64,000 nt of DNA from a virus (taxonomy: Duplodnaviria > Caudoviricetes). Location of the stretch: IMG/VR virus record IMGVR_UViG_3300032225_002400, positions 11,745 through 75,744 of that record; one strand, 5' to 3'. Shown piece after piece: positions 17,161 to 48,954 of this stretch (within the stretch, counting starts at the first letter, position 1; each line of letters starts with the position of its first letter). The notes beneath the pieces were generated by a model that saw only the letters and a program-made list of their open reading frames with translations, was not told the DNA's origin and ran no database searches. The position numbers and the translations under genes are program-made.

Positions 17161-17280
17161 ATGGCAAAAGCAACAAAAAAAATAGGTGTGGCAGATATTG
17201 CAAAGCTTGCAAAAAAAATTAGAAAACCTAATGAGAAATGGACCGATGCAATAAAAAGAGCAGCGGCACAATTAAAGTAA
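17161..17280 (+). CDS. 39-aa Lys/Ala-rich basic protein, candidate DNA-condensing core protein
   Basis: Manual translation MAKATKKIGVADIAKLAKKIRKPNEKWTDAIKRAAAQLK*. Confidence 0.65.
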   Translation: MAKATKKIGVADIAKLAKKIRKPNEKWTDAIKRAAAQLK

Positions 17281-17286
17281 TTTAAT

Positions 17287-19035
17287 ATGGCAAAGAAGAA
17301 TGTAGTCATCTTTGATGGGGAAGATAAATTTATCAACCCCAAAAAAGTAGTTTATAGTAAATCAAAAGGACAAGCAAAAAAAGTAGAGTCTTTCAAATCA
17401 ATGAGAGCTGCTAGTGAAGATGAGCAAAATCCTAGTGATGGAGGAGGTTCAGCAACTCAAGAACCTGTAACTCAAGTGGGCGTTCAAAATACTGTAGCTC
17501 CACCTGTTGCACCTATTGAAGTACCTTCACAAAATACTATTTCAAATATTCCTTTGCCTAATGTTACAGAAGTTATTAATGGAAGTGGTTCATCTATTCC
17601 TGCTCCTCAATTACCTGAATTTCCTACATTTCCACAACCTGAAGCACAAGTAACTCCTAGTCCTGTTCCTGCTTTACCTGTTTACGCAACAAGTGATATA
17701 AAGGCTACGCCAATATCTAATATTCAAACTAGTACTGTTACAAAAGAAACAGTAATGGCTCCTGTTCCTCAATTACCTTCGTTCTCTGCTTCTTCTCCTG
17801 TTTCAGGTTTAGGTTTAAGTTTTGGACAAAATGCGACAACAAAATCATGCCCTCCAGGTTTTAGAGATTATTTTGGAACATGTATTCCTATAACAAACAC
17901 TCAAGGTGCTTGTCAACAAGGTTATATGAAAGAATACGAAGGTGGTCCTTGTGTCCCAATTCCTGCTTCAGGTTCTATTGGTGGATGCGCGGCAGGTTAT
18001 GAATATAAATTAGGTTATAGAAGTGGTAGTTTAACTCCTGAAATGGGATGTTACCCTATTGGTTCTACTCAAGATATTAATACAGGAAGTAGCACTGGAA
18101 AAATTTTAGGTGGCGGTGCAGGAACAAATATCGGCGGCGGTGGAACTGTTCAAGGTGGTGGTGGTTCTTATGCAGATACTAGTGAAAAACAAGTTGGTAT
18201 TGGTCAAGGTGGACAAAGTACTGGTCTTACTTGTAATGAAAATCAAATATACGACCCTAAAACAGGAAGCTGTATGCCAAAATATACACCAGCTCCTGTA
18301 CCATGTCCTGCAGGTTTTACTGTAAATAAAGCTACAGGTACTTGTATAGAAAGTCTTAATCCTCAAGATTATAAATGCCCTCCTGTTGATTTACCGACTC
18401 CTCCTAAATGTAAAAAATATGCAGTAGTTGGTAAAGATACATTTGGTTGCGATAGATTTGAATTAGTAGATGATGCAGCTAATTGTCCTGATGTAATTCA
18501 AGAAAAACCTATTGAATGTAAAGATGGTTTAATATATAGTGAAGCGTTAAAAAAATGTGTTAATCCAATTGATGAAACTAAGAGACCTCCATTGACAACT
18601 CCTGAAGGAACTTGTCCTGTTGGTTATGATTGGAGTATTGCTGAACAAAAATGTATTTCAAAATGTGAGGCAGGTAAAACTTATGACCCTGTCAACATGA
18701 TGTGTGTAGAGCCTACTCCGTATACTCCAAAAACGCCTTATTGCTCTGCAAATCAAGTTTGGGATGAAGCACAACAAAAATGTGTATTCTCAGGAATAAT
18801 TACAAAACCTCCTGTTACTTCACAAACTACTACTACAACTACTAAAGCTCCTGAAAAAGATAGTTTAGGTATACTTCCTGTTGGAGGTGGTACAACTGGT
18901 GGAGGTGGTGGAGGTGGTGGAGGAGAAGATACTTCTGCAACAATAGCGAAAAAGAATTACTTTTGGTGGTATGTTGGAGGCGCTATTTTAGCAATTTATC
19001 TTTATAAAAACTATCATAAGAAGAAAAAAAAATAA
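17287..19035 (+). CDS. Pro-rich, Cys-repeat surface protein with C-terminal TM anchor
   Basis: At least 9 C-x2-[GN]-x7-10-C units; C-terminal YFWWYVGGAILAIYLYKNYHKKKKK. Confidence 0.75.
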   Translation: MAKKNVVIFDGEDKFINPKKVVYSKSKGQAKKVESFKSMRAASEDEQNPSDGGGSATQEPVTQVGVQNTVAPPVAPIEVPSQNTISNIPLPNVTEVINGSGSSIPAPQLPEFPTFPQPEAQVTPSPVPALPVYATSDIKATPISNIQTSTVTKETVMAPVPQLPSFSASSPVSGLGLSFGQNATTKSCPPGFRDYFGTCIPITNTQGACQQGYMKEYEGGPCVPIPASGSIGGCAAGYEYKLGYRSGSLTPEMGCYPIGSTQDINTGSSTGKILGGGAGTNIGGGGTVQGGGGSYADTSEKQVGIGQGGQSTGLTCNENQIYDPKTGSCMPKYTPAPVPCPAGFTVNKATGTCIESLNPQDYKCPPVDLPTPPKCKKYAVVGKDTFGCDRFELVDDAANCPDVIQEKPIECKDGLIYSEALKKCVNPIDETKRPPLTTPEGTCPVGYDWSIAEQKCISKCEAGKTYDPVNMMCVEPTPYTPKTPYCSANQVWDEAQQKCVFSGIITKPPVTSQTTTTTTKAPEKDSLGILPVGGGTTGGGGGGGGGEDTSATIAKKNYFWWYVGGAILAIYLYKNYHKKKKK

Positions 19036-21497: not shown

Positions 21498-22655
21498 ATG
21501 AGTACAGAACAAAAAATAACCAATGAAGAAGTAAAACCTACTCCAACTAGTGCTAATTACAATCCTTTCATGCAACAAGTTAGTGAGAAGCCATATTCTA
21601 CTATGAATGTTGGAGTAACACAAGACCAATTAAAAGGAGCAATTCCAGAACCAGTATTTACTCCATTTACAATTGATTCTAACGAGAATCCATATAATAT
21701 GTTAGGTGGAGAAGGACAACCAAGTAGTAATTTAGGTTCAAAAAATAATTCAGCATCTTTTAATCCAATGATGAATGATATTAATGATGGAGATAAAAAG
21801 CTAGGTGCACAACACATGGCTAAATTATTGGTAGATGGTTATGAACAATTACATGTTTTTGGTAATAAAGCTTTACAAGTACCAGAAAGAAAGATTAGAA
21901 AAATGGAACAAGAAGGTCTTATTGACTTATCAATTCCAATTCCGTATGAATATGGTAAAACAATTACTGCTGGAGAGTTTTTACAAGATTTTAATGAGCA
22001 AAATAAAGATGCTTTAACAGTATCAAAAGAATTTAAAAAAGAAGTTACTCCTGTATTAACTAGAGTGTTAGAAAAAAGAGGAGCAGGTTTAACCGATGAA
22101 CAATATTTAGGTTTTTTAGTTGGTAAAGATTTAATTGTAAAATTAGTAATAGTAGCACAATTACGTTCTACTATGAATGATATGATTAATGTAATTAAAG
22201 ACTATACAGAAGCCACAAAAGCTGGAAATGGTGTAACTCCACAACCACAACAAAAAACAACTACACAACAACCAGTAACTCCAACACCTACAACATCTGA
22301 ATATCAATATCAAGAACCTAATCATTCAGCTTCTGATTTTAATTTCCAAGATAATGAAGTTGTAATGAATAGCACTGTTCAACAAATGCAAGTACCTAGC
22401 ACAGGTAAAGCAAGAGTTATTGCACAAATTCAAAAAGAAAAGAAATGGAAAAATGATTCTGATAAATCAGTTGAAAATTCATCTTACGAACAAGCAATGA
22501 AAGAAAGAAAAAATGGAAATAAAAGAGGAAGAAAACCAAAAGATTATATTCAAAATGTAAAAATAGATGAACAAGAAATTGCAGAATCAATTATATTAAA
22601 TGAATCTATTAATCAACCTAAAAAGGAAAAAGACCCTTATTCAGATTTAGATTAA
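21498..22655 (+). CDS. hypothetical protein (packaging/assembly accessory candidate)
   Basis: 385-aa ORF with helical core and low-complexity ends, two genes upstream of the ATPase. Confidence 0.5.
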   Translation: MSTEQKITNEEVKPTPTSANYNPFMQQVSEKPYSTMNVGVTQDQLKGAIPEPVFTPFTIDSNENPYNMLGGEGQPSSNLGSKNNSASFNPMMNDINDGDKKLGAQHMAKLLVDGYEQLHVFGNKALQVPERKIRKMEQEGLIDLSIPIPYEYGKTITAGEFLQDFNEQNKDALTVSKEFKKEVTPVLTRVLEKRGAGLTDEQYLGFLVGKDLIVKLVIVAQLRSTMNDMINVIKDYTEATKAGNGVTPQPQQKTTTQQPVTPTPTTSEYQYQEPNHSASDFNFQDNEVVMNSTVQQMQVPSTGKARVIAQIQKEKKWKNDSDKSVENSSYEQAMKERKNGNKRGRKPKDYIQNVKIDEQEIAESIILNESINQPKKEKDPYSDLD

Positions 22656-22945: not shown

Positions 22946-23767
22946 ATGTCAAGAGAACCTATGTTGATGGCAGCGTGTGGAAAAAAAGGAGTTGGAAAAT
23001 CGTATCAACACATGATTTTAATGAACCAATATGTTCAAGGAGATTATTATAATGGTGTCAGAGGTAGAAAGTGTTTGATTATGGATGTCAATGATGAATA
23101 TGGTGTAGGTACTTATTATGTACAAGCTTTATCATTGAAAGATGTTCCATTATTTACAGTGCATCCACATATAGAAATAAGAAGAATTAGACCTTTTCAT
23201 CCAAATGGAACTAGAATGACGTTAGATGAATGGGCTCAAGCTTTATTTTATGTGTTAAGTAGATTTAGAAATGGTTTATTATTAATAGAAGATGTCAATA
23301 AATTTATTGGCGACCATTTACCAAATGATTTAGTAGGCTCAATTGCAACTAATAGACATATAGGTTTAGATATTATTCTATCATATCAATCTTTAGGTAG
23401 AATTAATACAAAAATATGGGGTAATTTAAACCAATTAAGGTTTCATAAAAATAATGAAAGTGTAGAAAGACATTCTTTAAAATTTCCTGATAAAGCAGAA
23501 TTTATGAGAATTGCAGAAATTATGGTTAATAATGAATACGCTAGAGGTAATAATAGATACTTTGTTTATGTAGATATGGATGAATCTAAAATTAGAGGTA
23601 ATATTAGTGATGAATTAAGAGATGAAGCTTTAAATGAATATATTAATGAAAACTACAATAATATATTAAAACCTTATTTAGTTCAAAGAAATGGAAGCAA
23701 AAAAAAGCATACTGTAGAAACTGCTATAAAAGAAGTAAAAACTAAATTAATTTCAGCTTACTTTTAG
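22946..23767 (+). CDS. A32/P9-like (FtsK-HerA superfamily) genome packaging ATPase
   Basis: Walker A GKKGVGKS, Walker B LLLIED, then TNRHIGLDIILSYQSLGRI (Arg-finger RH plus conserved Gln); 273 aa with no terminase nuclease domain. Confidence 0.85.
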   Translation: MSREPMLMAACGKKGVGKSYQHMILMNQYVQGDYYNGVRGRKCLIMDVNDEYGVGTYYVQALSLKDVPLFTVHPHIEIRRIRPFHPNGTRMTLDEWAQALFYVLSRFRNGLLLIEDVNKFIGDHLPNDLVGSIATNRHIGLDIILSYQSLGRINTKIWGNLNQLRFHKNNESVERHSLKFPDKAEFMRIAEIMVNNEYARGNNRYFVYVDMDESKIRGNISDELRDEALNEYINENYNNILKPYLVQRNGSKKKHTVETAIKEVKTKLISAYF

Positions 23768-23806
23768 TGTATTTTATTTATTATAATTAATTGAATTGCA
23801 ATATAT

Positions 23807-23853
23807 TATATTTGCAATGTTAAATCTTTTCAGTATTTTTAAATATATATTTG
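23807..23853 (+). promoter_or_regulatory. two Bacteroidota-type -7 promoter boxes upstream of capsid operon
   Basis: TATATTTGCA at 23807-23816 and TATATTTG at 23846-23853 in the intergenic region. Confidence 0.6.
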
Positions 23854-23976
23854 TTATTTAACTAAAAATAGTAATTTATTTTAATTAATAAATTTTGATT
23901 ACTTAATTTTAAACTGTCAATGCTGAATCTGTATTCACAATGGCAATTATTCATAAAACAATTAAATAGTATTAAA

Positions 23977-24084
23977 ATGAATTTCAAAGCAATCGCAGGA
24001 CAATTACTAATTGTTGCAGGTGGTGTTGCTCTTTACATGTTGGCTATAAAGCCTATGTTAGACAAAGCCAATGTAACTAAGTAA
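23977..24084 (+). CDS. 35-aa single-TM protein directly upstream of capsid gene
   Basis: Manual translation MNFKAIAGQLLIVAGGVALYMLAIKPMLDKANVTK*; C-ending codons (TTC, ATC, TAC, GCC) as in the capsid gene. Confidence 0.75.
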   Translation: MNFKAIAGQLLIVAGGVALYMLAIKPMLDKANVTK

Positions 24085-24141
24085 TTATAGAAGTAAACGA
24101 ATTGAAAATTAAATTAATTCAAAAATCAAAATTCATTAAAA

Positions 24142-24843
24142 ATGAGTAGTATTCAACGCTATTTACAAATGGCAAACCGTCAAGTAAACGAATCGTTTAT
24201 TGGCGTAGATGGTTTCGTAGACGATGACATGTATTTTGCAGCTGGAGATAATTTCTTCGGTGCAGACGGAACAGAAGCAGCTCCTGCTGCTGCAGCTCCT
24301 GCAGTTATGCGTTCTCAACCTTACATCTTAACAGTATCTAATGCTTCTAACGCGGCAGTTACTATTGATGTATTTGGAGCTTATATCTATTTGAACAACG
24401 CAGGTTTTTCAGGTGGAAGCTTAACAGTAAGCAACGTAACAATCACTTCAGGATTGTCTAACGTAACTTATTACAACTTATTGAACCAATCATCTGTATC
24501 TCCATTCACAATTGGAAGTACTTTGATTTCTTCAGTAAATGGTACAACTAGCCAAGTGTTACAACCTTTAACACTTAGTACTTTAGATGCAAATGGTAAC
24601 CAAGCAACTAAAATCTTAACTCCAGTTATTGACCCGTATCAACAACAAAGTGGTGTTATTGAATTGAAACAACCATTCAGAATTGATGGTTTTACTAAGT
24701 TAACTTTCAGCATTTATGCTTCAAGTTCAGTTCAATTCCAATTCTACCCTTCTGATACTATCAACATCGCAAGAGGTTTAGGTGGTAACGCTGTATCTAA
24801 ACAATATGGTAGTCCAAAGATTATCAGACCAGCTTCTCGTTAA
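24142..24843 (+). CDS. putative single-jelly-roll major capsid protein
   Basis: About 175-aa beta-strand-rich core after an acidic/Ala-rich N-arm; biased codon use (AAC, TTC, ATC, CGT); promoter boxes upstream and terminator downstream; follows packaging ATPase. Confidence 0.65.
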   Translation: MSSIQRYLQMANRQVNESFIGVDGFVDDDMYFAAGDNFFGADGTEAAPAAAAPAVMRSQPYILTVSNASNAAVTIDVFGAYIYLNNAGFSGGSLTVSNVTITSGLSNVTYYNLLNQSSVSPFTIGSTLISSVNGTTSQVLQPLTLSTLDANGNQATKILTPVIDPYQQQSGVIELKQPFRIDGFTKLTFSIYASSSVQFQFYPSDTINIARGLGGNAVSKQYGSPKIIRPASR

Positions 24844-24866
24844 TTCAAGAAGATTTGGGAAAATAT

Positions 24867-24912
24867 AAAAAGAGGGTGTGAGTGTGATTTTATCTTACTC
24901 CGCCCTTTTTTT
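24867..24912 (+). terminator. intrinsic terminator after capsid gene
   Basis: GGGTGTGAGT...ACTCCGCCC imperfect stem followed by 7 T. Confidence 0.7.
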
Positions 24913-24930
24913 CATTAAAATTTACAAATT

Positions 24931-25350
24931 ATGTCATTACCTAGAGTAAATATATTTAATTACACGGCAGCAGCAAATCCTTATTTTGTTAAAAGTTTAG
25001 CTCATAAATATGGTTATGAGTTTGATAAAGACCAAAAATTAGATACTGTATTGCAACAATTAGTAACTTATGAAGGTGAACCTATAATGATGGAAATAAT
25101 TGAGAATAATCCTGATAAAGATTTATTTATGGATTATTTTGAGAAAAAATATGGCAAAAAAGAAGAAAAGAATAATTCAAATGAATTAGGTGGCGCAAGA
25201 TTACTTGATACTTATATGAATTTCACAGGACAATTACAAGCTGCACAACAAACTGCTGAAAATAAAATGATAACAAAAGAAACAAGTGTTATGGTTTTAC
25301 TTGGTGCAGTACTTATTTCATTCGCAATAATGTTTAAAAATAACAAATAA
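24931..25350 (+). CDS. virion membrane protein, C-terminal TM, NFTG motif
   Basis: C-terminal VMVLLGAVLISFAIMFKNNK; YMNFTG at 25219. Confidence 0.65.
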   Translation: MSLPRVNIFNYTAAANPYFVKSLAHKYGYEFDKDQKLDTVLQQLVTYEGEPIMMEIIENNPDKDLFMDYFEKKYGKKEEKNNSNELGGARLLDTYMNFTGQLQAAQQTAENKMITKETSVMVLLGAVLISFAIMFKNNK

Positions 25351-25351
25351 T

Positions 25352-26011
25352 ATGGCACTTTCAGCAATAGAAACTGTAAAAGAATTAATTTCATACTCAG
25401 TTGTAACAGATAAAAATGGTTTAGTTAAGTTATTAGAAAGAAATGGTATTCAATTACCAAATAATCCTTCTGATAATGAAGTAACTGTTGCTGTTTTAAT
25501 GGCAAATAACAGAAGTGGTGTTTTCAGAAATGAATTAAAAAAATATTTAGGAGCATTAGTTCCAGAAGTATCTAATTACACAGTACAATTAAGTGGAGGT
25601 ATGAATTTCACTGGTACAGATGATTTTTCTTTTACTGCAGGAGATGAATTTTATAATTTAACTGCAGGTCAAGCAAAAAGAGTTACTGATACTAATCCTT
25701 CCGGGAAATCAAAAGTGGGAATAGCATTAGCTAGTATAGGTACATTTTTTAAAGATAATGTACTTACAAAAGACAATATTAATTCAGGTATACAAATTGG
25801 ATTAACTAGTTTAGCTAATAAGACTAATGCACAACAAAATGCTGTTACTGCTCAGTCTTTACAACTACAAAATTATCAAGATACTTTAAGACAACAACTT
25901 CCTAACGCTTCAAAAAAATCTAATACTATGTTATATGTATGGATTAGTGTTGGTGTTTTAGCTGTTGGTGTTTTAGGTTTTGTTTTATATAAATCATATA
26001 AAAAGAAATAA
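25352..26011 (+). CDS. virion membrane protein, C-terminal TM, NFTG motif
   Basis: MNFTGTDDFSFTAGDEF; C-terminal LYVWISVGVLAVGVLGFVLYKSYKKK. Confidence 0.65.
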   Translation: MALSAIETVKELISYSVVTDKNGLVKLLERNGIQLPNNPSDNEVTVAVLMANNRSGVFRNELKKYLGALVPEVSNYTVQLSGGMNFTGTDDFSFTAGDEFYNLTAGQAKRVTDTNPSGKSKVGIALASIGTFFKDNVLTKDNINSGIQIGLTSLANKTNAQQNAVTAQSLQLQNYQDTLRQQLPNASKKSNTMLYVWISVGVLAVGVLGFVLYKSYKKK

Positions 26012-26012
26012 T

Positions 26013-26132
26013 ATGTTAAAAGGTAAAAATTTATTGTTGTTATTAGCAATTGCAGGCGTATCTTATTATTATTTAGTATGGCAAAAAAGCGCTAAAGATA
26101 AAGAAAATGATGCTGCAAAAGCTAAAAAATAA
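26013..26132 (+). CDS. 39-aa single-TM protein (MLKGKNL family)
   Basis: Manual translation MLKGKNLLLLLAIAGVSYYYLVWQKSAKDKENDAAKAKK*. Confidence 0.75.
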   Translation: MLKGKNLLLLLAIAGVSYYYLVWQKSAKDKENDAAKAKK

Positions 26133-26136
26133 AAAA

Positions 26137-26328
26137 ATGATTAATAGTAAAAAAATATTATTAATTGGAGGTGTTTTGGTAATAGCGTATCTTTTATTAA
26201 AAAAGAAAAAAAATACTATTGTTAGTGAAAATGGAAAAGAAAAGATTTCGCAGTTTGACCCTATAAATGTTAAACCAATGCCATGGATAGGTGTTCCAAA
26301 TTCACTTACTGAAATTAAGATAAATTAA
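26137..26328 (+). CDS. N-terminal TM small protein
   Basis: Start reassigned to ATG 26137 (MINSKKILLIGGVLVIAYLLLKKKK). Confidence 0.65.
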   Translation: MINSKKILLIGGVLVIAYLLLKKKKNTIVSENGKEKISQFDPINVKPMPWIGVPNSLTEIKIN

Positions 26329-26329
26329 A

Positions 26330-26464
26330 ATGACTAAAGAGAATAAACAATTATTATTAATAGGTGGATTTATATTTGTTTTATATACACTTTATAAGAT
26401 ATATGAAAAGAAATATCAATCAGTTCCTGATTCAGTAGTAATTCCAACAGAATTTGAAAATTAA
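26330..26464 (+). CDS. 44-aa single-TM protein
   Basis: Manual translation MTKENKQLLLIGGFIFVLYTLYKIYEKKYQSVPDSVVIPTEFEN*. Confidence 0.7.
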   Translation: MTKENKQLLLIGGFIFVLYTLYKIYEKKYQSVPDSVVIPTEFEN

Positions 26465-26491
26465 ATTAAATAACAAACAAAAACTACAATT

Positions 26492-26653
26492 ATGTTAAAA
26501 GGTAAAAATTTATGGATTTTATTAGGTGTAGGTGCTGTAGCATACTATTATTTTATGATGAAAAAGAAAAAAGATGCTGCTTCTGCTGCTTCTACAACTC
26601 CTGCTGTTAAAAACTTTACAGGAGACCATGGTATTTTAGCAAAACAAAATTAA
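26492..26653 (+). CDS. 53-aa single-TM protein (MLKGKNL family, NFTG motif)
   Basis: Manual translation MLKGKNLWILLGVGAVAYYYFMMKKKKDAASAASTTPAVKNFTGDHGILAKQN*. Confidence 0.75.
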   Translation: MLKGKNLWILLGVGAVAYYYFMMKKKKDAASAASTTPAVKNFTGDHGILAKQN

Positions 26654-26676
26654 TTAGAAATTAAAAAAGTAAAAAA

Positions 26677-26928
26677 ATGTTAAAAGGTAAAAATTTATTA
26701 ATTATTGCAGGTGTTGCTGCTGTAGGTTATTATTTATATAAAAAAAATCAAGCTGCTAAAGTAATTGCTCCTTCAACTGCTGCAACTAATTTTACAGGTA
26801 ATTTAGGTGTACTTAATGCTGATGGCGCACATTTAACTGATAGACAAATTAATAGAATTGCAAACGCTAGTCCTGAAAGAGCTCAAAGAATTTATAATAG
26901 AGTTTCAAAAAGAATGGGGATTAGATAA
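26677..26928 (+). CDS. single-TM protein (MLKGKNL family, NFTG/NADG motifs)
   Basis: MLKGKNLLIIAGVAAVGYYLYKK..TNFTGNLGVLNADG. Confidence 0.75.
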   Translation: MLKGKNLLIIAGVAAVGYYLYKKNQAAKVIAPSTAATNFTGNLGVLNADGAHLTDRQINRIANASPERAQRIYNRVSKRMGIR

Positions 26929-26938
26929 AAATTAAGTT

Positions 26939-27331
26939 ATGACAACTACAAAAAAAGTACTTTTATACGCAGGGATATATATTATAGGTTATCAATTATG
27001 GAAATACTATAGTAAGCCTAAAAGCGTATTAGTAAAAGGTTCTGATGCTGACACACCTGAAAAGGTAGAATATAGCACAGGAAAAGAAGGTATGTTAGGT
27101 TCTGATGGTTCTTTAGATACAATGATTAATTTAAAGAAGCCCATCTATATTAGACCTCAAAATTCTATTCCTGATGTATATGATAGAGGTATTGGACAAT
27201 TTATTAATTGTAGTGGTGGTTATATGAACGCTTCAGGTTTTCATGAAAACTTAGCTACGGCTTGTAACGCTAGAACTGTAAAAAAACTTGGCGCTACAAA
27301 AATTGATATTCCTATAATACCTCAAAATTAA
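26939..27331 (+). CDS. N-terminal TM protein
   Basis: VLLYAGIYIIGYQLWKYY; NCSGGYMNASG. Confidence 0.6.
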   Translation: MTTTKKVLLYAGIYIIGYQLWKYYSKPKSVLVKGSDADTPEKVEYSTGKEGMLGSDGSLDTMINLKKPIYIRPQNSIPDVYDRGIGQFINCSGGYMNASGFHENLATACNARTVKKLGATKIDIPIIPQN

Positions 27332-27341
27332 AATAAAAACA

Positions 27342-27578
27342 ATGGCAGAGGCGAAAGATATATTAGATAAAGTAAAACAATTAAAATCTAATTCTGAAAG
27401 CATGGCTTTGAAGAAAATGAAAGGTACAGTTTCAGGAGCTTTAATTGGTATGGGTGGTGGCTTACTAATAGGATTTACAAGAGGCTATAATTTAGTCTCT
27501 TCTGCGTTTGTAGGAGCTTTACTTGGAGGAGTTATATCTCAAGTTTTATTACCAAAATTAGATGATAGCAATGAATAA
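27342..27578 (+). CDS. Gly-zipper 2-TM membrane protein
   Basis: GALIGMGGGLLIG / AFVGALLGGVI. Confidence 0.65.
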   Translation: MAEAKDILDKVKQLKSNSESMALKKMKGTVSGALIGMGGGLLIGFTRGYNLVSSAFVGALLGGVISQVLLPKLDDSNE

Positions 27579-28263
27579 TAAGTATATTAAATTTGCCGCT
27601 TTAGCAGCTATTACAGTAGGTGGTTACTTAGTGATTAAAAATCTATTAGGTAAATCTGTTGGAGTAACAAAACAAGTAGGTGATTCAGAAAGTGGTTTAG
27701 ATAATGGGAAAGCTGCAGTTTCTAATTACTTCCCTTTAGCTAAAGGTAGCAAAGGAGAAAAAGTTAGAGAATTGCAGACTATTTTAGTAGGTATTGATGC
27801 AAATTCACTCCCTAAATATGGTATTGATGGAGATTTTGGAAGTGAAACTGAAGCTGCTTTATTTAAGTATTTGAATAAGAAGCAAGTTGATAATCAAGAA
27901 GACATAGCTACATTAAATTCTTTAAAAACTACAGCTCAATCAAAAGCTTTAGAATCTTCAATTAATGCTAATAGAAGTATAACTGCGAATGAAATTATCA
28001 ATGATTGGAAGCTTAATAATATGAAAAATATATACGCATCTAATGATTTAGGATATGTTATTGGTAATTTATCTGCATCAGGTTTAGAATTAAATTCTGT
28101 AAATAAATTTGCTAAAAAAGGTGAAACTATAGTTAATGGTTTTGAAATAAAAGATATGAAAGTTTTACCTAGTGGTTATATTATGGCTTCTATAGGAACA
28201 GGTACTTTAGGATTAGATAGTAGATTTGCTAAATTTAGCCCTTTTGGTGTCATGATAAAGTAG
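27571..28263 (+). CDS. TM-anchored peptidoglycan-binding (PG_binding_1) protein
   Basis: LAKGSKGEKVRELQTIL..IDGDFGSETEAAL; start probably ATG 27571 rather than 27562. Confidence 0.8.
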   Translation: MNNKYIKFAALAAITVGGYLVIKNLLGKSVGVTKQVGDSESGLDNGKAAVSNYFPLAKGSKGEKVRELQTILVGIDANSLPKYGIDGDFGSETEAALFKYLNKKQVDNQEDIATLNSLKTTAQSKALESSINANRSITANEIINDWKLNNMKNIYASNDLGYVIGNLSASGLELNSVNKFAKKGETIVNGFEIKDMKVLPSGYIMASIGTGTLGLDSRFAKFSPFGVMIK

Positions 28264-28291
28264 TAATTTTAAAATAAAAAATAACCATAAA

Positions 28292-28582
28292 ATGGAAGAA
28301 ATAAATTTAGATAAAAAGCTTACTGCCAACCAACTTTTTAAAGAATATAAAGATGAAGGAGGCACATTGAATTTTTCAGATTGGTTGACTAGAGAAAAGA
28401 CAAAAGGTATTTTCCCTATAAATTTGAATCTAAATCAAGAAGTAAGTAAAAAATTAACTGATTTAAAACAAGAAGAAATGAATAAAACAGTTTTAGGTTT
28501 CCCTGTAAGCACCTTATTAATAGCAGGTGGAGTAATTATAGTAGCAATAGTTGCTGTTAATGTATTAAAAAAGAAAGCATAA
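28292..28582 (+). CDS. small protein with C-terminal TM
   Basis: C-terminal LLIAGGVIIVAIVAVNVLKKKA. Confidence 0.65.
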   Translation: MEEINLDKKLTANQLFKEYKDEGGTLNFSDWLTREKTKGIFPINLNLNQEVSKKLTDLKQEEMNKTVLGFPVSTLLIAGGVIIVAIVAVNVLKKKA

Positions 28583-28866
28583 TGAAAAAAGATAATTTTA
28601 TTTGGTGGGTATTAGGAGGCTTTGGAGCTGTTGCTCTTTGGTATTATTATCAAAATAATAAAAAGAAAAGTGTAAGTACTAAAGAGTTAGTAGTAGATGT
28701 TCTTCAAGAAGAGCAAGATAAGTATAGTACACCTTTTAAAGCTGAGTATAATATTATTATGCCTGCTGATTTAGTGTCAAAGAGAGTAAAAGAAAAGGCG
28801 GCTGTGTTAACTGCAGGTAGATATGAAATACAGCCTGATAAAGTACAAGCACCATTATTTATATAA
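28582..28866 (+). CDS. small protein with N-terminal TM
   Basis: FIWWVLGGFGAVALWYYYQ. Confidence 0.65.
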   Translation: MKKDNFIWWVLGGFGAVALWYYYQNNKKKSVSTKELVVDVLQEEQDKYSTPFKAEYNIIMPADLVSKRVKEKAAVLTAGRYEIQPDKVQAPLFI

Positions 28867-28867
28867 G

Positions 28868-29674
28868 ATGCAGTACAAATTGTGGACAAGATATGAACCA
28901 TGTATGGTTAAAGTTGTGGTAAAAACAAATTCACCTCAACTTATTGTGTTAAAGGCATTTGATGCTACACAAGCCAATACAGTTTTTATGGAAAGGGAAA
29001 AAACTATTGATGGAACGCAAGAGTTGTATGTAAGGATGCCATTATCCCCTAGTTCAACTGCTTTAGCAATTTATAATAAAAAAAATGGCAACTTGGCAAA
29101 AGGTCAAGATAGTTCTTTTGAAGTTTCTCAAATTAAAAAAGAAGATTTGGACATTACTTTAGCTAAAACTAAAATGGACAATTCTTTAGTTAGAAATTTT
29201 GTTGCTTTTGCTCAAAAGTTTGCATTTAACGCTGGTTGGATTCAAGCTCCAAAAGATTATATAAGTACAGTAGGTGCTTTTAAAATAGAATACTTACCTT
29301 ATATAACAAACAACAAAACTAATGCTAAGATGGCTACACCTGCTCGTATAAGTACCAAAAATGGTAGAATACAAGTGTCTCAGGAAGCTTTCTTACCATT
29401 TACTATACCAATGAGAATGGCAATATTATTACATGAGTTTAGTCATTTTTATTTGAATAGTGATATTTCTAATGAAACTGAAGCTGATTTGAACGGACTT
29501 ACAATTTATTTAGGATTAGGCTACCCTATCAAAGAAGCCTATTCTGCTTTTATAGATACCTTTATTGGTTATCCTACTGAGCAGAATAAAAGAAGATATG
29601 ATATAATCAATAGGTTCATTAAAGATTATATTGAAGAATATAAAATAAAAGATGTCTACGCAGTAGGCGAATAA
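28868..29674 (+). CDS. HEXXH zinc metallopeptidase (zincin)
   Basis: ILLHEFSH followed by NETEADLNGL (downstream Glu ligand); start reassigned to ATG 28868 just after upstream stop. Confidence 0.8.
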   Translation: MQYKLWTRYEPCMVKVVVKTNSPQLIVLKAFDATQANTVFMEREKTIDGTQELYVRMPLSPSSTALAIYNKKNGNLAKGQDSSFEVSQIKKEDLDITLAKTKMDNSLVRNFVAFAQKFAFNAGWIQAPKDYISTVGAFKIEYLPYITNNKTNAKMATPARISTKNGRIQVSQEAFLPFTIPMRMAILLHEFSHFYLNSDISNETEADLNGLTIYLGLGYPIKEAYSAFIDTFIGYPTEQNKRRYDIINRFIKDYIEEYKIKDVYAVGE

Positions 29675-29685
29675 AAATAAAAGTT

Positions 29686-30213
29686 ATGGCAGACAAAGGA
29701 GCACTTAGAGTTTATACAGAATTACCATCTTGGGCAAAAGGAGTAGTTGTTGTAGGTGGGCTTGTTGTAGGTTATTTAGCTGTTACATCTATTTTAAGAG
29801 CTATTAAAGCTAAAAAAACAGAGGCTGAATCAAAAGCTGAAATTTCACAAGCTAATACTGAATTAAATACTCAAATAAAATCAGGAAATGGTCCAACAAT
29901 TCAAAGAAGTCAAGCAGAAGTTATGGCTAATGCTATAGTTGCTGCTTCAAATGATTGTGGAACTGATGAAAAACAAATTTATGCTCAATTTGATAAAGTA
30001 AAAAATCAAGCTGATATATTGTTATTTGTAGAAGTTTTTGGTTTAAGAAAGAAAGTAAGATGCCCATTTAGTGATGACCCTAGAGAATCATTTTTTAGTT
30101 CAGATACTCCTCCAATGTCATTATCTGCTATGATAAATTCAGAATTAGATACTACTGAAATTCAAACTTTAAATAATAAATTAGCAACAAAAGGAATTAA
30201 ATATAAATTTTAA
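29686..30213 (+). CDS. TM-anchored protein with annexin-like GTDE repeat
   Basis: N-terminal TM; CGTDEKQIYAQFDKVKNQADILLFVEVFG. Confidence 0.5.
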   Translation: MADKGALRVYTELPSWAKGVVVVGGLVVGYLAVTSILRAIKAKKTEAESKAEISQANTELNTQIKSGNGPTIQRSQAEVMANAIVAASNDCGTDEKQIYAQFDKVKNQADILLFVEVFGLRKKVRCPFSDDPRESFFSSDTPPMSLSAMINSELDTTEIQTLNNKLATKGIKYKF

Positions 30214-30216
30214 TAT

Positions 30217-30831
30217 ATGGCACTTTTTGAATCAGAAAAAACAAGAATAACAGAAGCAAGTAATAGTTATGCACAAAAATATCCTTTAAGTGAGAATATA
30301 TCTAACTTACAAGCTAGTGTTAATGCAGCTAATGTTGATTTAGTTAGTTTAAGAAATGAACAACCTGAAACTGCTGGAGGTAAGCGTGTAAGACAAAGAA
30401 ACATTACTGCTCTATCTAATAGAATTATGCAGCTTCAAAATAAAATTAAAGATTTACAAAGTGGTATGAGTGGAAGTGATATTATTAAAATTGCTTATCC
30501 TTCTTACTCTACTCTTCCAAAAGTAACTAGTCAAACTATTTTAGGAAGTACACCATATAGCTTTCAAATACCTATGTTGAATATGCCAAATAGCGTTAAG
30601 AATATAAAAAAATCAAAACCTGCTTCAAAAACAACTGATACAAGAGATTTAGCTGACAGTATTGCAAATAACAATGGTATACCTGTTGCAGGAGAATCAA
30701 ATGGTGCTGTAGGTGATTATCCTCCTCCTTATGGAGTTCAAAATACAAATACTAAATCAATACTATTATATGGTGGTTTAGCGGCAATAGTGGGAATTAC
30801 AGCTTATTTCATGTTTATAAAGAAAAAATAA
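30217..30831 (+). CDS. helical-hairpin protein with C-terminal TM (paralog A)
   Basis: KYPLSEN..AGGKRVRQRNITAL..RI; C-terminal TM plus KKK. Confidence 0.65.
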   Translation: MALFESEKTRITEASNSYAQKYPLSENISNLQASVNAANVDLVSLRNEQPETAGGKRVRQRNITALSNRIMQLQNKIKDLQSGMSGSDIIKIAYPSYSTLPKVTSQTILGSTPYSFQIPMLNMPNSVKNIKKSKPASKTTDTRDLADSIANNNGIPVAGESNGAVGDYPPPYGVQNTNTKSILLYGGLAAIVGITAYFMFIKKK

Positions 30832-30835
30832 TTAT

Positions 30836-31300
30836 ATGGCATTATTAGGACCAACAGGAAAAAAAATAGCAATAGGAGCAGCAGTAGCAGGTGGTTTAAC
30901 ACTTGCAGGAATAGGAATTGCTAAAAACGCAGAGCAAAAAAGAGTTTTAGCTGCTGAAGATGATATGAAGAAGAAATATCCTTTTTCAGAAAATTGTCTT
31001 GAAATGCAACATATATACAAAACTGCAAAACTTACTTTAGCTCAATTAGAAGCTGAATCAGGTGGAGATGCAGGTGCTAAAAGAGTAAGAGCAAGAAATA
31101 CAGCAGCTTTAAAGAAAAGAATTATAGAACTTGAAAATTATATACCAAATTTAGATTGCTCAAAGGCAGTTTTAGCTCCTGATGGGTTACCACAAGGTGC
31201 TGTTGCTCCTGCATCTAATGTTACTAAATATTTGTTATATGGCGTTGCAGGTGTGATATTATTGGTGGTATTTTCTAACTTAATGAAGAAAAAAGACTAG
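30836..31300 (+). CDS. helical-hairpin protein with TM segments (paralog B)
   Basis: KYPFSEN..AGAKRVRARNTAAL..RI; N- and C-terminal hydrophobic segments. Confidence 0.65.
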   Translation: MALLGPTGKKIAIGAAVAGGLTLAGIGIAKNAEQKRVLAAEDDMKKKYPFSENCLEMQHIYKTAKLTLAQLEAESGGDAGAKRVRARNTAALKKRIIELENYIPNLDCSKAVLAPDGLPQGAVAPASNVTKYLLYGVAGVILLVVFSNLMKKKD

Positions 31301-31302
31301 TT

Positions 31303-31977
31303 ATGGCAATAGACATGATTGAAAATAATGAGCTTGGTGCCCTTGCAAAAAGCAGATTAGGTGATACTAAGCAGTTTACTAATGAAAACCAAAAGTATAA
31401 AAACTTCTCAGGTAATGAGGATGTTTTTCAAAGAGTAGACATTAATGAAGAGTTTGAAAACCTTTTTGGAAGTAAAACATTCAAAGATAATAAAGCAAAA
31501 GCTACTAAAGAAGCTGAAGATTTTGTTGCAGCTTTACCAAAAGGTAATTGTGATGATATTGAGAAAAGCTTGGGAAAACTTGCTTTATATATTGAAGCTC
31601 AAACAAAAGAATTAGGATTAGCTAAAGGCCATGTTACAGAATACCCTAAAAATAGATTAACAGTAGCTAGAAAAGCAGAAGCTGATTTAAAAATGACTCA
31701 ATCTAATTTAGATTGTTTAAATATACAAGCTAAAGCACAATCTGAAGCTAAAAAAGCTGAATTGATAAAGACTTTAACTAATGTTTCAGAAGCTAGTGTT
31801 CAACAAGCGAAAACAGACCTTTTTGGTACTCCTACAGGACAACCTTTGTACGCACCTGCTACAACTGACCAAGGAGCATTAAGTTCTGTTCAAAATGCTC
31901 TTGTTTCTAACAAAAATTTATTAATTTATGGTGGTATTGGAGTAATTGTATTAATTTTATTATTAAGAAGAGATTAA
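31303..31977 (+). CDS. helical protein with C-terminal TM, NFSG motif (distant paralog C)
   Basis: KNFSG at 31402; C..SNLDC like paralog B; C-terminal LLIYGGIGVIVLILLLRRD. Confidence 0.6.
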   Translation: MAIDMIENNELGALAKSRLGDTKQFTNENQKYKNFSGNEDVFQRVDINEEFENLFGSKTFKDNKAKATKEAEDFVAALPKGNCDDIEKSLGKLALYIEAQTKELGLAKGHVTEYPKNRLTVARKAEADLKMTQSNLDCLNIQAKAQSEAKKAELIKTLTNVSEASVQQAKTDLFGTPTGQPLYAPATTDQGALSSVQNALVSNKNLLIYGGIGVIVLILLLRRD

Positions 31978-31979
31978 GA

Positions 31980-32468
31980 ATGAAATATTTAAAACCTGCA
32001 TTAATAATTAGTGGACTTGGCATAATTGGTTATGCCCTTTTCCGTTATTATAAGAAGCAAATAGACTTTGTAAAAGATATTCAATATACCATTTCAGGGT
32101 TAAAAATAGTAAACATTTCAAAAGAAGATGTTACACTTGAAATATTTTTAAAAGTTTATAACGCATCAAATGTAGAAGCTAAAGTAACTGAGATTTATTT
32201 AGATGTTATGATGAATGGCACTAAAGTAGGTTCTATAAATGAATCAAATGAGTTTACAATTATGCCAACACAGACTACTGATGTAAGCTATAAATTTAGT
32301 TTTAATCCAAGTTTAGTAATAAAAAATATTGTTAATATTTTAACTTTAACTGTTCAATTGAAAGATGTTGTAATAGTAGCAGATGGGTATATGAAAGTAA
32401 AAAGTGGTTTTTTATCAACAACAATTCCATTTACATATCAAAACACATTAAAAAAACTTTTAAAATAA
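31980..32468 (+). CDS. LEA_2 (WHy) domain protein with N-terminal TM
   Basis: TM then beta-sandwich pattern LEIFLKVYNASN..LDVMMNGTKVGS..IMP..T.V. Confidence 0.75.
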   Translation: MKYLKPALIISGLGIIGYALFRYYKKQIDFVKDIQYTISGLKIVNISKEDVTLEIFLKVYNASNVEAKVTEIYLDVMMNGTKVGSINESNEFTIMPTQTTDVSYKFSFNPSLVIKNIVNILTLTVQLKDVVIVADGYMKVKSGFLSTTIPFTYQNTLKKLLK

Positions 32469-32474
32469 TAATAA

Positions 32475-32753
32475 ATGGGAGCAACTAATTCATTTACATA
32501 TAGCTTAACTAATGGTTCATTAACAATAAATTCAAGTGATAATGTGTTAAGATTTAGTGTTATGTGTAAACAAGGTACTATATCTTTATTAGGTACTACT
32601 TCTTTTAAAGGATTAACACCAAGTGCAATTACATTTTCAGTAGGTCAAGGTGCTACAGAAACTGCAGCTAGTCCTTCTCAACCTTTAGATGGAATAACTA
32701 TAACAGCAGGAACGGCAGGAGATATTGCAACAATATTACTTTCTACTACATAA
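32475..32753 (+). CDS. small all-beta protein, penton/vertex candidate
   Basis: 92 aa of alternating Ser/Thr/hydrophobic strands, located before the fibre genes. Confidence 0.4.
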   Translation: MGATNSFTYSLTNGSLTINSSDNVLRFSVMCKQGTISLLGTTSFKGLTPSAITFSVGQGATETAASPSQPLDGITITAGTAGDIATILLSTT

Positions 32754-32777
32754 AAATATTAAAAAAAAATCATAAAA

Positions 32778-33176
32778 ATGGAAGAATTTATTTTATCAGA
32801 AACAAGAACAATTTTTAACAAAGCCATAAAAAGATTTGCGAAAGAAAATAAGAAAGATAAATTAGAGGTGTCTTTTCTTTTAAAATTGACTCCAGAAAGG
32901 GAAGTTGGTTATATGTATTGTCAAGACCATACACCATTCAGAGAAACTAATATTAAAGAGATATTAAATGTTAGAGCTTTTGATATGAAGGGATATACTG
33001 TTTTAGTACCACCTCAAATCAAAAATATTATAGAGAAATTAGAGGCTCGAATGAGCTCAAATAATATAGAAGTATGTGTTTACCTAGATAGAGAAGATGA
33101 AGATGAAGTTCGTTATTTTGTATATCAAGATGGTAAATATGTAAAAGAAGTTAATTTACTTGAATTGATTAAATAA
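32778..33176 (+). CDS. hypothetical protein
   Basis: 132-aa ORF with AATCATAAAA leader. Confidence 0.6.
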   Translation: MEEFILSETRTIFNKAIKRFAKENKKDKLEVSFLLKLTPEREVGYMYCQDHTPFRETNIKEILNVRAFDMKGYTVLVPPQIKNIIEKLEARMSSNNIEVCVYLDREDEDEVRYFVYQDGKYVKEVNLLELIK

Positions 33177-33182
33177 TTTGCA

Positions 33183-33935
33183 ATGAGTAGTACATTTTTA
33201 GGAGGAGATAGTTTTAGTTTATTTAGTGGTGGCTCAGGAGGAGGCACTAGTGGAGTTGTTGGTTCTAGTGGAACTAGCGGTCAAACTTATGGAACTAGTG
33301 GAACTAGTGGTCAAGGTACAAGTGGAACAAGTGCAACAAGCGGCACAACAGGTACAAGTGGAGTAACAGGAACTTCAGGCTTAACAGGAACTTCAGGAAC
33401 AAGCGGTGTAACAGGCACAAGCGGAACAAGTGGCGTAACAGGAACTTCAGGAACAAGTGGTATGGGAACAAGTGGTACAAGTGGCTCTTCAGGTTCTAGT
33501 GGAAATGGTACTGCAGGAACAAGTGGTGGAACAGGTACGGCAGGTACTAGTGGAGTAAGTGCTGCAGGAACAATAAAAAATTATCAAGTAGTAATAGCTA
33601 CATCAAATGGTTCTTTAAGTAGTGTAACAAGTGCAACTGACCCTGTTGGAGCAAATCTAATAGGTGCTGCAGGATGGACATTCACCATAGATAGTAGTAC
33701 TCAATTTACTATAACACATCCTTTAGGAAATGTTTTTATTAGTGCTTTTACTAATGGTTTAAATGGTTCTAATGTTCTTACAAGAACTTTTTCAGGAAAT
33801 ACAACAGGAAACTATAGTATGTTTCAAAATAGTACTTTTACATCTATCATTTTTTATAGTTTATCAGGTACATTAGCAGGATATGCAACAGTTGGTTTAG
33901 GTACTTTAACAATTAATTTTCAAGCAAAAGTTTAA
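33183..33935 (+). CDS. short fibre with collagen-like G-T-S repeats and C-terminal beta domain
   Basis: Over 100 residues of mostly Gly-X-Y (GTS/GSS/GTA) triplets, then about 120-aa beta-rich head. Confidence 0.75.
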   Translation: MSSTFLGGDSFSLFSGGSGGGTSGVVGSSGTSGQTYGTSGTSGQGTSGTSATSGTTGTSGVTGTSGLTGTSGTSGVTGTSGTSGVTGTSGTSGMGTSGTSGSSGSSGNGTAGTSGGTGTAGTSGVSAAGTIKNYQVVIATSNGSLSSVTSATDPVGANLIGAAGWTFTIDSSTQFTITHPLGNVFISAFTNGLNGSNVLTRTFSGNTTGNYSMFQNSTFTSIIFYSLSGTLAGYATVGLGTLTINFQAKV

Positions 33936-33942
33936 ATAATGT

Positions 33943-36900
33943 ATGGCTCAATTGATAACCCCTCCTATTTGTATACCTGCGAGTATAAACTTTGGGTCTA
34001 CAACAGTTGCTTCAACTTATTCTAATGCACTTTCTCCATGGAATGGTTCATCATTTACATTTAATTGTACATTTTCTGTTTTAATTCAAGAAACAAGTTC
34101 TTACGATACAAATCCAATATTACAATATAATGCCAATAATCTAAGTGTTGGGATGTGGTTTGGACTTCCTAATGGAAATTGCTATAGAATACAATCAATA
34201 ACATCAGTAAACGCACAAGGAACATCCTGTGTATTAGTATTAAAAGATGTTGATTTATACAATTTAGTAGTAGATAATACAGGAAATGGAAACAACTTTC
34301 CTCCTGAAGGTTTTGTTGGGTTATTTTTTACTATAGGTTCAGATGGTCTTCCTGTAATTACACCTACAGAACAAATAAGAAGTCAGATTGGTGATATTAC
34401 CAATTGGCTTAATGATTTACATGATAGATTTAGATTTAGAAACTATATAACTGATTATTTTACATTAAATATTAATGATAATAGTTATACAGGTATTGTA
34501 GAAGGAAACTTTGTTAAAATTAACTCTAGTGGTAGCTTTGTTAAAGTTACAGGAACTACAGAAAATGATTTATTAAGCATCGCAGGTATAGTATCTTCAG
34601 CAGATACACCTGAACAAGGTAATTTAAGAGTTAGACCTTTAGGAAGAGTTGTTAGCAACTTAAATATTTTAGTTGGAAATATTGGAGATGTATTATATTT
34701 TGACCCAAATCAAATTGGTAGTCTTACTTCTACAAAGCCTGCAACAGGCGTTTTTCCTGTTTATATAAAATTAAGCTCGACAAGTGCTATATTAAAGAGT
34801 GGTGGCGTAGGTGCAAGCGGTACAGCAGGTACAGCAGGTTCTAGCGGAACTGCAGGAACAAGCGGAGCAACAGGAACAGCAGGAACTTCAGGTATAAATG
34901 GTGTATCAGGTGGTTTAATATATTGGATGAATCAATCTATTAATACAAGTAGTGCTTTTGGTACACCTACATATAAGCAATTAAGTACTAATCCAACTAT
35001 AACAGGTCAAACAAGTCAAGATTTAACATTAGGAGCAGGAGCTACAGGTACATTTCAAACTTTTGCAACTGATAGCGGTGTTCCGGGTTTAACTTCAATA
35101 CCTGCAGGGAATTGGGCATTTATAGTACACATACAAAATATAAATACAACTAATGGTTGGGATATTTATGTAGAGTTGTATACCTATACAATAGGTGGTA
35201 CTTCAACTTTAGTACTTACAACTAATAGGGTTTTAATTTTAAATAATGTAGATATACAACAAGTTTATGTTGATGGATTTTGGAATGGTGGAGCAATAAA
35301 TTCTACAGATAGATTATATGCTAAAATAATTGGTAAAAATAACGGTACAGGTAGTAAAACTGCTACTTTTTATACAGAAGGAAGTTCATTTTATTCATAC
35401 GCACAAACTACATTTAATGCTCCATCAGGAACAAGTGGTACAAGCGGAGTAAATGGCACATCAGGAACAAGCGGAACAAATGGCACATCAGGAACGAGTG
35501 CTTCTAGCGGAACTTCAGGAACAAATGGAACTAATGGAAGCTCAGGAAGTAGTGGTACTACAGGAACTTCAGGTTCTAGTGGTAGCTCAGGTTCATCAGG
35601 CACTTCGGCAACAAGTGGAACAAGCGGAAGTTCTGGGTCTAGTGGTAGTTCAGGAACTTCAGGTATTTCGGGTAGTTCTGGGACTAGCGGAAATTCGGGG
35701 TCTAGTGGAACCACAGGGACTAGTGGGACATCAGGAAGCTCTGGTATTACACCTTCAGTAAGTGGGGCTAGTGGTCAAATAGCTTACTTTAATGGTACTT
35801 CATCTATTACAAGTGATGCTACCTTTACTTATTCTCCTACTTCTCAACTATTAGTTAATAATAGTGTTACGGCTGCATCAGCAATAGCAAGAGGAACTAA
35901 TCTTACTCCTACTCTTGTAGCAGCAGCTAATGGTGATGTATTAGTAGGATTAGATATTAACCCTACGTTTACCAATGGTGCTTTTACAGGGGTATCAAAC
36001 TATGGAGCAAGAATACAAAAGACTGCATTATTTAATGATACTTGGGCAAATACGCAAGCTATTTTTGGTAGTAGTGGTCAAGGCGGTAAAATAGCCTTTG
36101 CTAGAGGTCAAGACGGTTTTGCAGGTGCTACAATTGGATTTACAAACGCAGGCAGTTCAACCAACTTTGCAATAACAAATGTTTCTGGTGGTTTACTTGA
36201 TATAACGCAGAATGCTGGAACATCTACATCACTAAGTGCTACGAATGCAAATGGCTTCGTATTAATAAGAGCAACAGGTGCTTCAGGCTACTTGCAATTT
36301 CAAACGGCAGGTACCGTAAATGCTCAAGTATTCTCCACAGGTAACTGGCTTTTACAACAAGGAGGTACTTTTACAGATGCAGGATATAAATTAGATGTAG
36401 CAGGAACAACTCGTTTAAACGGATTACAAACCTTTGTAGGAACTACTGCAAGTGATGGAGGACAATTAGGAGCTGAACTTTTATCATCTTCAGGTTGGAC
36501 AAGTACAGGTTGGACAGGCTCTTATCCTTCGTTTACGCATACTACAGGTAATACTACAAACTTAACAAATACGTTGGCTGCGGTTGTAGGTAATAACTAT
36601 GCATTTACTTATACGATTACAACAAGAACGGCAGGTACAATTACCTTTTCTTTTGGTGGATTAACTTTTTCAGGAGCATCTTCTTCAGGTGTCGCTTATG
36701 GAAAAGCTACATCAACCGCTTCATTAGTTATTACACCTACTACTGATTTTGATGGAACAGTTGTTATGTCTATTAAGCAAGTTACCGCAGGTTCAGCAAC
36801 AACTACTTTCCAAAATAGTTCAGCAATTGCAAACATAGAAGTAAGAGCAAGTGGAGCTTCTGCAACTAATACATTTATAGGCTTAAATAGTGGTAGATAT

Positions 36901-47245: not shown

Positions 47246-47548
47246 ATGGCTTCTGATTCAACAAGCGCATCATCTAGAACTATAAGTTCAAATGAAAATC
47301 TAACTACTCGTGTAAATCATATTGAGAAAACTATAATGAAAATTAGTCCTCAAATTGATGAAATATATAAAGTTATTGTAGGAAATGATGCATTTCAACA
47401 AGAAGGTTTAATTTCAAGAGTAAAAAAACTTGAAGAACAAAATGATAAAAATAATGCCCTTAGAAATAAATTAATGGGAGCATTCATTTTTGGTGGAGCA
47501 GTTTGGACTATAATTTTAGAAGTAATAAAAAATAGATTTTTTAAATGA
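47246..47548 (+). CDS. coiled-coil protein with C-terminal TM
   Basis: GLISRVKKLE; C-terminal LMGAFIFGGAVWTIILEVI. Confidence 0.65.
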   Translation: MASDSTSASSRTISSNENLTTRVNHIEKTIMKISPQIDEIYKVIVGNDAFQQEGLISRVKKLEEQNDKNNALRNKLMGAFIFGGAVWTIILEVIKNRFFK

Positions 47549-47982: not shown

Positions 47983-48100
47983 ATACGAAAAAATATTAAT
48001 TGGAACTTTAGTTAGCATAGCACTAATAAACTTTTATTTGCAATACAAAGCAGGTAAAAAATTAGATGAAATAAAACAAGTACTTAATGGAAAAACATAA
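47975..48100 (+). CDS. 41-aa single-TM protein
   Basis: Manual translation MNKYEKILIGTLVSIALINFYLQYKAGKKLDEIKQVLNGKT*; TAATG coupling to next gene. Confidence 0.7.
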   Translation: MNKYEKILIGTLVSIALINFYLQYKAGKKLDEIKQVLNGKT

Positions 48101-48600: not shown

Positions 48601-48602
48601 TT

Positions 48603-48953: not shown

Positions 48954-48954
48954 A

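Follow-up and report, generated by a model that had tools for sequence, protein, structure and literature searches.

Tailless phages that contain a membrane are known almost only as small genomes, such as those of PRD1 (14.9 kb), P23-77 (17 kb), and SSIP-1 (Salisaeta icosahedral phage 1, 43.8 kb). Here, we analyze a 64,000-bp stretch of viral DNA (the window; positions 11,745 to 75,744 of the IMG/VR record IMGVR_UViG_3300032225_002400), in which a gene for an ATPase of 273 amino acids (aa) is followed by a gene for a 233-aa jelly-roll protein, the coat protein candidate, and by a run of small membrane proteins. The source contig has 75,744 bp and 28.7% G+C, and the window is its right-hand 64 kb. 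We interpret the locus as the morphogenesis core of a widespread, uncultured bacterial virus with a linear-looking double-stranded DNA genome of ~76 kb, and we consider it probable that its virion is tailless and membrane-lined, with the 233-aa protein as the coat.

The gene order is that of PRD1, where P9, gpi/P20, P3, P22, and membrane proteins correspond to the ATPase, membrane peptide, coat candidate, and small membrane proteins here, P20 occupying the position of the peptide. The dimensions differ, since PRD1 has a 14.9-kb genome and a 395-aa coat protein, compared with ~76 kb and 233 aa here. The PRD1 coat is a double jelly roll, and the phage has genes for a protein-primed polymerase and for a terminal protein. 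In the present virus, no tectivirus-like double-jelly-roll major coat was found, the candidate being a single jelly roll; no polymerase family is present among the best 25 Pfam families listed, and a 247-aa protein has no Pfam match.

In the 17-kb genome of P23-77, the ATPase gene is followed by ORF14 and VP15, then by VP16/VP17 and small structural proteins. The likeness to Halopanivirales consists in a coat gene of single-jelly-roll size located 3' of the packaging ATPase and followed by small proteins, which in P23-77 are structural. While the P23-77 coat genes are paired (VP16, VP17), here a single copy adjoins the ATPase gene and its diverged counterpart is found at a distance of 25 kb, so that the layout with two adjacent coat genes is absent. 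The likeness appears to be functional only. The preliminary description of this DNA, made from the letters alone, had proposed an A32-like ATPase with a single-jelly-roll capsid module; this combination stands, but neither sequence similarity to VP16/VP17 nor an adjacent coat pair was found.

The archaeal viruses STIV and STIV2, whose ATPase B204 is the closest structural match (see below), have genomes of less than 20 kb, and the STIV coat is a double jelly roll. B204 shares 15–17% identity with the ATPase here, which has an additional helical C-terminus of ~50 residues. SSIP-1 is a tailless, membrane-containing virus of a Bacteroidota host, and its 43,788-bp genome is large for that type and exceeds those of the other tailless, membrane-containing bacterial viruses compared here. 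The genome here is ~1.7 times larger, in line with the earlier expectation of more than 64 kb, above the size of the cultured tailless bacterial viruses. SSIP-1 was considered as the closest known system and rejected, as hidden Markov models (HMMs) of the coat and ATPase families matched none of its proteins; because of this, the likeness is confined to lifestyle and size. We would not place the virus in any existing family, given that its coat has no sequence link to Halopanivirales or Tectiviridae, that it lacks both the paired coat genes of the former and a double-jelly-roll coat, that no protein appears to be shared with SSIP-1, and that neither core protein has a match among phage records.

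The predicted packaging ATPase and the jelly-roll protein

The ATPase contains a Walker A motif GKKGVGKS (residues 12–19) and a Walker B motif LLLIED (residues 111–116). Residues G12, K14, G17, K18, E115, D116, R137, H138, and Q148 are invariant in 37 aligned homologues, and the R137/Q148 segment after Walker B presumably provides the arginine finger and sensor of this family. The Walker motifs, the RH..Q segment, and the lack of a nuclease domain, all described previously from the letters, were thus recovered. The AlphaFold2 model based on the 37-homologue alignment has a predicted local distance difference test (pLDDT) of 90.5 and a predicted template modeling score of 0.86. In a Foldseek search against PDB with this model, B204 of STIV2/STIV fills the first 14 ranks (E 1.3e-8), followed by the N-domain of Zot (1e-6), HerA (3e-6), VirB4 (2e-5), and FtsK (3e-4); two methods agree in ranking B204 of STIV2 first, above HerA, DndH, VirB4, and FtsK. 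Because of these fold matches and since no nuclease or other second domain follows beyond the C-terminal helices, the protein is best described as a small FtsK/HerA-type ATPase with a viral packaging motor as its nearest match. Among solved structures, the model is closest to a viral genome-packaging motor, and that motor, the B204 NTPase, belongs to a membrane-containing tailless virus, which agrees with the ATPase type assigned in the preliminary description.

Sequence comparisons are less specific. No curated family model matched significantly, the only hits being AAA_22 in Pfam (E 0.02) and a Zot-like family in PHROGs (0.004). A PDB search with the sequence alone found nothing, and a profile search reached HerA at 0.021. 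In profile–profile alignment by hhalign, the ATPase could be aligned with that of P23-77 over 149 columns, from the P-loop to R..G......Q (E 5.9e-5, probability 65%), whereas in PRD1 P9 the P-loop alone aligns. A large protein collection contains 448 homologues, few of which carry PF01935 (HerA/DUF87).

The ATPase and jelly-roll genes are separated by a 374-bp gap with one small membrane open reading frame (ORF), and their adjacency is kept in relatives. In the AlphaFold2 model of the 233-aa protein, based on 106 diverse homologues (pLDDT 87.7, core >95), a helix at the N-terminus is followed by a flexible arm, with residues 20–41 at low confidence, and by a beta sandwich of eight strands. The structural matches of the protein are without exception jelly rolls, and viral capsid or penton proteins are common among them. 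The best fold match is the PRD1-type penton P31; Foldseek matches include the cowpea mosaic virus small subunit, satellite virus coats, TNF, and carbohydrate-binding modules (best E 1.7e-3). Such scores lie in the range expected for a common arrangement; they fix the fold class but no particular kinship. That the protein should be a jelly roll had been set beforehand as a test of the preliminary description, and the model and the fold searches agree on it.

Half of the NNY codons of this gene end in C, compared with a genome mean of 0.15 +/- 0.075 (z 4.6), the strongest bias among the substantial genes of the genome. The gene has its own terminator, the hairpin of which has a z-score of -3.74, none of 200 shuffled sequences folding as well. 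Across 13 related loci, its conservation exceeds that of all other genes in the block (79–99% identity, compared with 68–94% for the ATPase), and the gene always adjoins the ATPase gene, even in relatives with identities of 43–53%. The codon bias, terminator, conservation, and position next to the ATPase are the reasons why we regard the 233-aa protein as the likely main shell protein; the codon-biased, beta-rich gene with a terminator noted earlier is borne out.

Neither Pfam nor PHROGs contains a match for the coat candidate, the ESM Atlas offers no useful neighbor, and a tblastn search with the ATPase and the coat candidate against 50,697 phage records gave no match. In metagenomes, members of the coat family occur on contigs as long as 84 kb and group into 797 clusters at 90% identity and 564 at 50%.

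The membrane component is suggested by the genes around and downstream of the coat gene. Transmembrane (TM)-like segments were predicted in 13 of the 18 ORFs at 23920–32468 and in 26 of the 105 ORFs elsewhere (Fisher p 1.6e-4), making up 39 of 123 in the whole contig (~1/3). Both the run of small TM proteins and the TM peptide between the ATPase and coat genes had been pointed out from the letters. In relatives, the peptide is called as 35 or 54 aa and has an identity of 52–94%. The promoter boxes claimed for this region were checked in part: copies of TAnnTTTG precede the peptide ORF by 113 and 74 nt, and intergenic DNA shows a 2.2-fold higher density of this motif. Taken together, the observations of the preliminary description were recovered where it had placed them, and its reading is supported.

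From the gene content, we infer that the virion has a membrane and no tail, and we propose the following packaging route. The small single-pass proteins would insert into the host membrane, and the highly expressed 233-aa jelly-roll protein would build a shell on that membrane patch. The ATPase would dock at one vertex, probably via the peptide encoded between the ATPase and coat genes, as modeled on P9 with P20/P22 in PRD1, and would then drive the genome into a procapsid already formed and lined with membrane. Vertices and host-recognition structures may be formed by the paralogue of the jelly-roll protein, the adjacent Thr-rich protein, and the collagen-like fibers.

Virion type and rival readings

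No terminase, portal, or HK97 capsid protein was found with Pfam and PHROGs among all proteins of at least 270 aa, nor among the best 25 families of each of the whole-proteome Pfam and PHROG scans. A six-frame search with PF03237 (Terminase_6N), PF05065 (Phage_capsid), and PF04860 (Phage_portal) covered the source genome and relatives of 84, 84, and 102 kb and gave nothing at E <= 1 in these four genomes, while control genomes were positive; portal families other than PF04860 were covered by the whole-proteome scans alone. The lack of detectable genes of this kind, previously noted for the window, extends to the 11.7 kb of the contig outside it and to three colinear relatives.

Several points weigh against a tailless, membrane-lined virion with the 233-aa protein as its coat. 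The shape of the virion and its lipid and protein content are deduced from the genes. The coat profile showed no similarity to P23-77 VP16 and VP17 or PRD1 P31 in profile comparison (hhalign probability <1% for VP16/VP17); of the halopaniviral and PRD1 coat and penton proteins, VP16 and VP17 included, only P31 ranks within the best 50 fold matches, and a shared fold would be compatible with this. Weak matches may be hidden, since the whole-proteome scans give the best 25 families each. CheckV estimates the completeness of the contig at 66%. Finally, for three large proteins (1001, 620, and 1007 aa), PHROGs give no match and Pfam only short ones to DUF5661 and DUF5824; divergent folds could be hidden in them. 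The last two points, together with matches of the collagen/Peptidase_S74 fiber genes to PHROGs labeled 'tail fiber', would suit a tailed phage (Caudoviricetes), the terminase, portal, and HK97 capsid of which are too divergent or lie beyond the contig ends, and the ATPase of which has another function. We hold this to be distinctly unlikely. Of all phage genes, that of the large terminase is usually the simplest to recognize, and yet the six-frame search yielded none in four genomes of 75–102 kb; all proteins of at least 270 aa have another function (glycosyltransferases, RecT, DUF932, alpha-glucosyltransferase, phosphoesterase, fibers) or no PHROG match; and collagen-like fibers with S74 chaperones are not specific to tails. 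Moreover, two relatives (G001 and G003) are colinear with the source contig, and their ends lie no more than a few hundred bases from its own; therefore little of it seems to be missing, and the contig looks like a near-complete genome.

The virion could also be tailless and membrane-containing with the true coat among the unassigned proteins, the 233-aa protein being a vertex, cement, or receptor-binding component, a role in keeping with its penton-like fold matches. This is unlikely in our opinion, as the top codon bias, top conservation of the block, and separate terminator fit the most abundant virion protein; the paralogue, unbiased and encoded beside the Thr-rich protein, is a better candidate for the vertex; and none of the other proteins has a size and beta content as expected for a double-jelly-roll coat. 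Infection of a eukaryote or archaeon, the virus being, e.g., a small relative of the large DNA viruses with A32-type ATPases, seems very improbable. This reading is evoked by matches to DUF5661, DUF5824, and CBM_14, which we take to have a eukaryote-virus flavor, as well as by collagen repeats and many glycosyltransferases. On the other hand, strong endolysin matches (phrog_181, 1.4e-64; Pfam Glucosaminidase, 3.3e-16) and a weak match to PG_binding_1 (E 0.035) in the second 233-aa protein, encoded within the membrane-protein run at 24931–28866, point to a peptidoglycan wall; RecT, T4-type alpha-glucosyltransferase, dCMP deaminase, and MazG are phage families; coding is dense and mostly unidirectional; and no double-jelly-roll coat, RNA polymerase, or capping gene is among the best 25 families listed. 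We therefore retain the tailless, membrane-lined virion with the 233-aa coat.

Coat-family paralogues, possible lineage, and probable host type

The source genome encodes two members of the coat family, each with a single domain. The diverged paralogue lacks codon bias (0.12), and the stop codon of its gene overlaps the start of a gene for an 800-aa Thr-rich protein; our guess is that it is a vertex component. A second structural cluster is located at window positions 47246–52731 and comprises five small TM-like proteins, the paralogue, and the Thr-rich protein. This cluster may be a vertex or spike module.

The more distant relative G004 (102 kb), in which the gene order is kept from a thymidylate-synthase-like gene on the left to RecT on the right, contains six coat-family matches: the canonical gene by the ATPase, three more single copies, and a 397-aa tandem protein (L023:9824-11017; G004 17225-18418), the halves of which match the coat candidate at E 3e-24 and 1e-21. 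The same two-domain build was observed in two other representatives (456 and 411 aa); the tandem proteins of relatives (397–456 aa) include P0263 and P0267. A step from single to double jelly roll is the proposed origin of capsids in the PRD1-adenovirus lineage. It is possible, although we would not call it likely, that these viruses represent an undescribed high-rank lineage of tailless, membrane-lined bacterial viruses with genomes of ~75–100 kb or more, in which the coat family has multiplied and in some members fused, the halves still being alike, as an intermediate between single and double jelly rolls. No description of such a lineage was found in the literature searched, which does not prove that none exists.

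If this interpretation is correct, a widespread lineage of 75–100 kb with the same assembly logic would lift the bacterial size ceiling for this virion type. It would also add a new coat family that is invisible to current viral marker sets, because no Pfam or PHROG model covers it, and surveys using tailed-phage markers would mislabel or miss an abundant group. Since one family includes jelly-roll genes in single, multiplied, and tandem-fused form, it offers a concrete system in which the origin of the double jelly roll can be tested.

The endolysins, RecT, and T4-type DNA-modification genes point to a bacterial host. GGAG and GAGG are missing from positions -20 to -5 of all 123 genes; this, together with TAnnTTTG, fits translation and promoters of Bacteroidota, and a host from that phylum appears plausible. 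Metagenome bins of related contigs carry the labels Gammaproteobacteria, Bacteroidetes, and Chlamydiae, which looks like binning noise, and were rejected as a source of host assignment.

Neighboring genes and the rest of the genome

Table 1. Features of the proposed morphogenesis locus and the jelly-roll paralogue (window coordinates)
Feature	Position	Strand	Remarks
Conserved protein, 385 aa, low-complexity, basic C-terminal part	21498..22655	+	No Pfam/PHROG match
Conserved protein, 95 aa	22657..22944	+	No family match; 54–88% identity in relatives
Predicted genome-packaging ATPase, FtsK/HerA superfamily, B204/A32/P9 type	22946..23767	+	273 aa
Single-pass membrane peptide, 54 aa (35 aa from ATG 23977)	23920..24084	+	One hydrophobic segment
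Major capsid protein candidate, 233 aa	24142..24843	+	N-terminal helix and flexible arm (1–55), single eight-stranded jelly roll (~58–221)
Intrinsic terminator directly 3' of the capsid gene	24867..24912	+	Hairpin of -21.8 kcal/mol, then UUUUUUU
Small, mostly single-pass membrane proteins (139, 219, 73, 53, 83, 130, 78, 233, 96, 94 aa)	24931..28866	+	Hydropathy
Conserved protein with HEFSH (HExxH), putative zinc metallopeptidase	28823..29674	+	Likely start 28904
Five membrane-anchored proteins (175, 204, 154, 224, 162 aa)	29686..32468	+	Hydropathy; last is LEA_2, E 1.2e-8
92-aa Ser/Thr/Gly-rich and 132-aa proteins	32475..33176	+	No family match; kept in relatives
Collagen-like fiber proteins (250 and 1643 aa)	33183..38874	+	Pfam Collagen 7.8e-14; large one with C-terminal Peptidase_S74, 2.3e-9
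Diverged jelly-roll paralogue, 223 aa	49658..50329	+	Coat-family profile E 9.7e-9, BLASTP 2e-4

All relatives have the 385-aa protein at this position upstream of the ATPase, even the distant L009 and G004, in which its identity is 35%. It was considered as a double-jelly-roll coat and dropped, its sequence being of low complexity and charged; we guess that it is a scaffold or a DNA-associated core protein. The stop codon of the 95-aa gene lies two bases upstream of the ATPase start.

Downstream of the coat gene, the HExxH protein (283 aa) is among the best conserved products of the block after the coat protein and the ATPase. Its identity is 70–94% in relatives and falls to 44% in G004. Neither Pfam nor PHROGs gives a match, and its ESM Atlas lead to metallopeptidase clusters is weak (0.82–0.84). 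The motif NF[TS]G has five copies in the proteome, all of them within membrane proteins encoded 3' of the coat gene (139, 219, 53, 83, and 224 aa; window 24931–31977), whereas shuffled proteomes contain 0.64 copies on average and three at most; it is possibly a docking or processing motif. The collagen-like proteins that follow the membrane-protein genes are probable host-recognition fibers.

Over the whole 75.7-kb contig, 123 ORFs were called, the genes being densely packed and mainly on one strand; no tRNA gene was found. The three adjacent large proteins without PHROG matches are encoded at window positions 3541–11457, and pieces of them are kept in the 102-kb relative. The first 680 bases of the contig are AT-rich and seemingly non-coding. 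Its last 57 bases (window 63944–64000) are the exact reverse complement of genome positions 640–696 (L001:640-696), and each copy covers promoter-like DNA and the beginning (codons for MKKL) of a gene that faces inward. No inverted repeat between the contig ends was found in G001, G003, or G004. Two origins are conceivable for the inverted copies, a collapsed inverted terminal repeat and the repetition of a regulatory element such as a promoter with a gene start.

The left arm of the genome (L001:4301-5506, L001:8192-9049, and neighbors) carries a set of DNA-modification genes. It includes a T4-type alpha-glucosyltransferase (PF11440, 4.7e-15; phrog_2888, 5e-74), along with a dCMP deaminase, a MazG-like pyrophosphatase, and an enzyme of the thymidylate-synthase family. 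This gene set suggests that the DNA contains glucosylated hydroxymethyl-cytosine.

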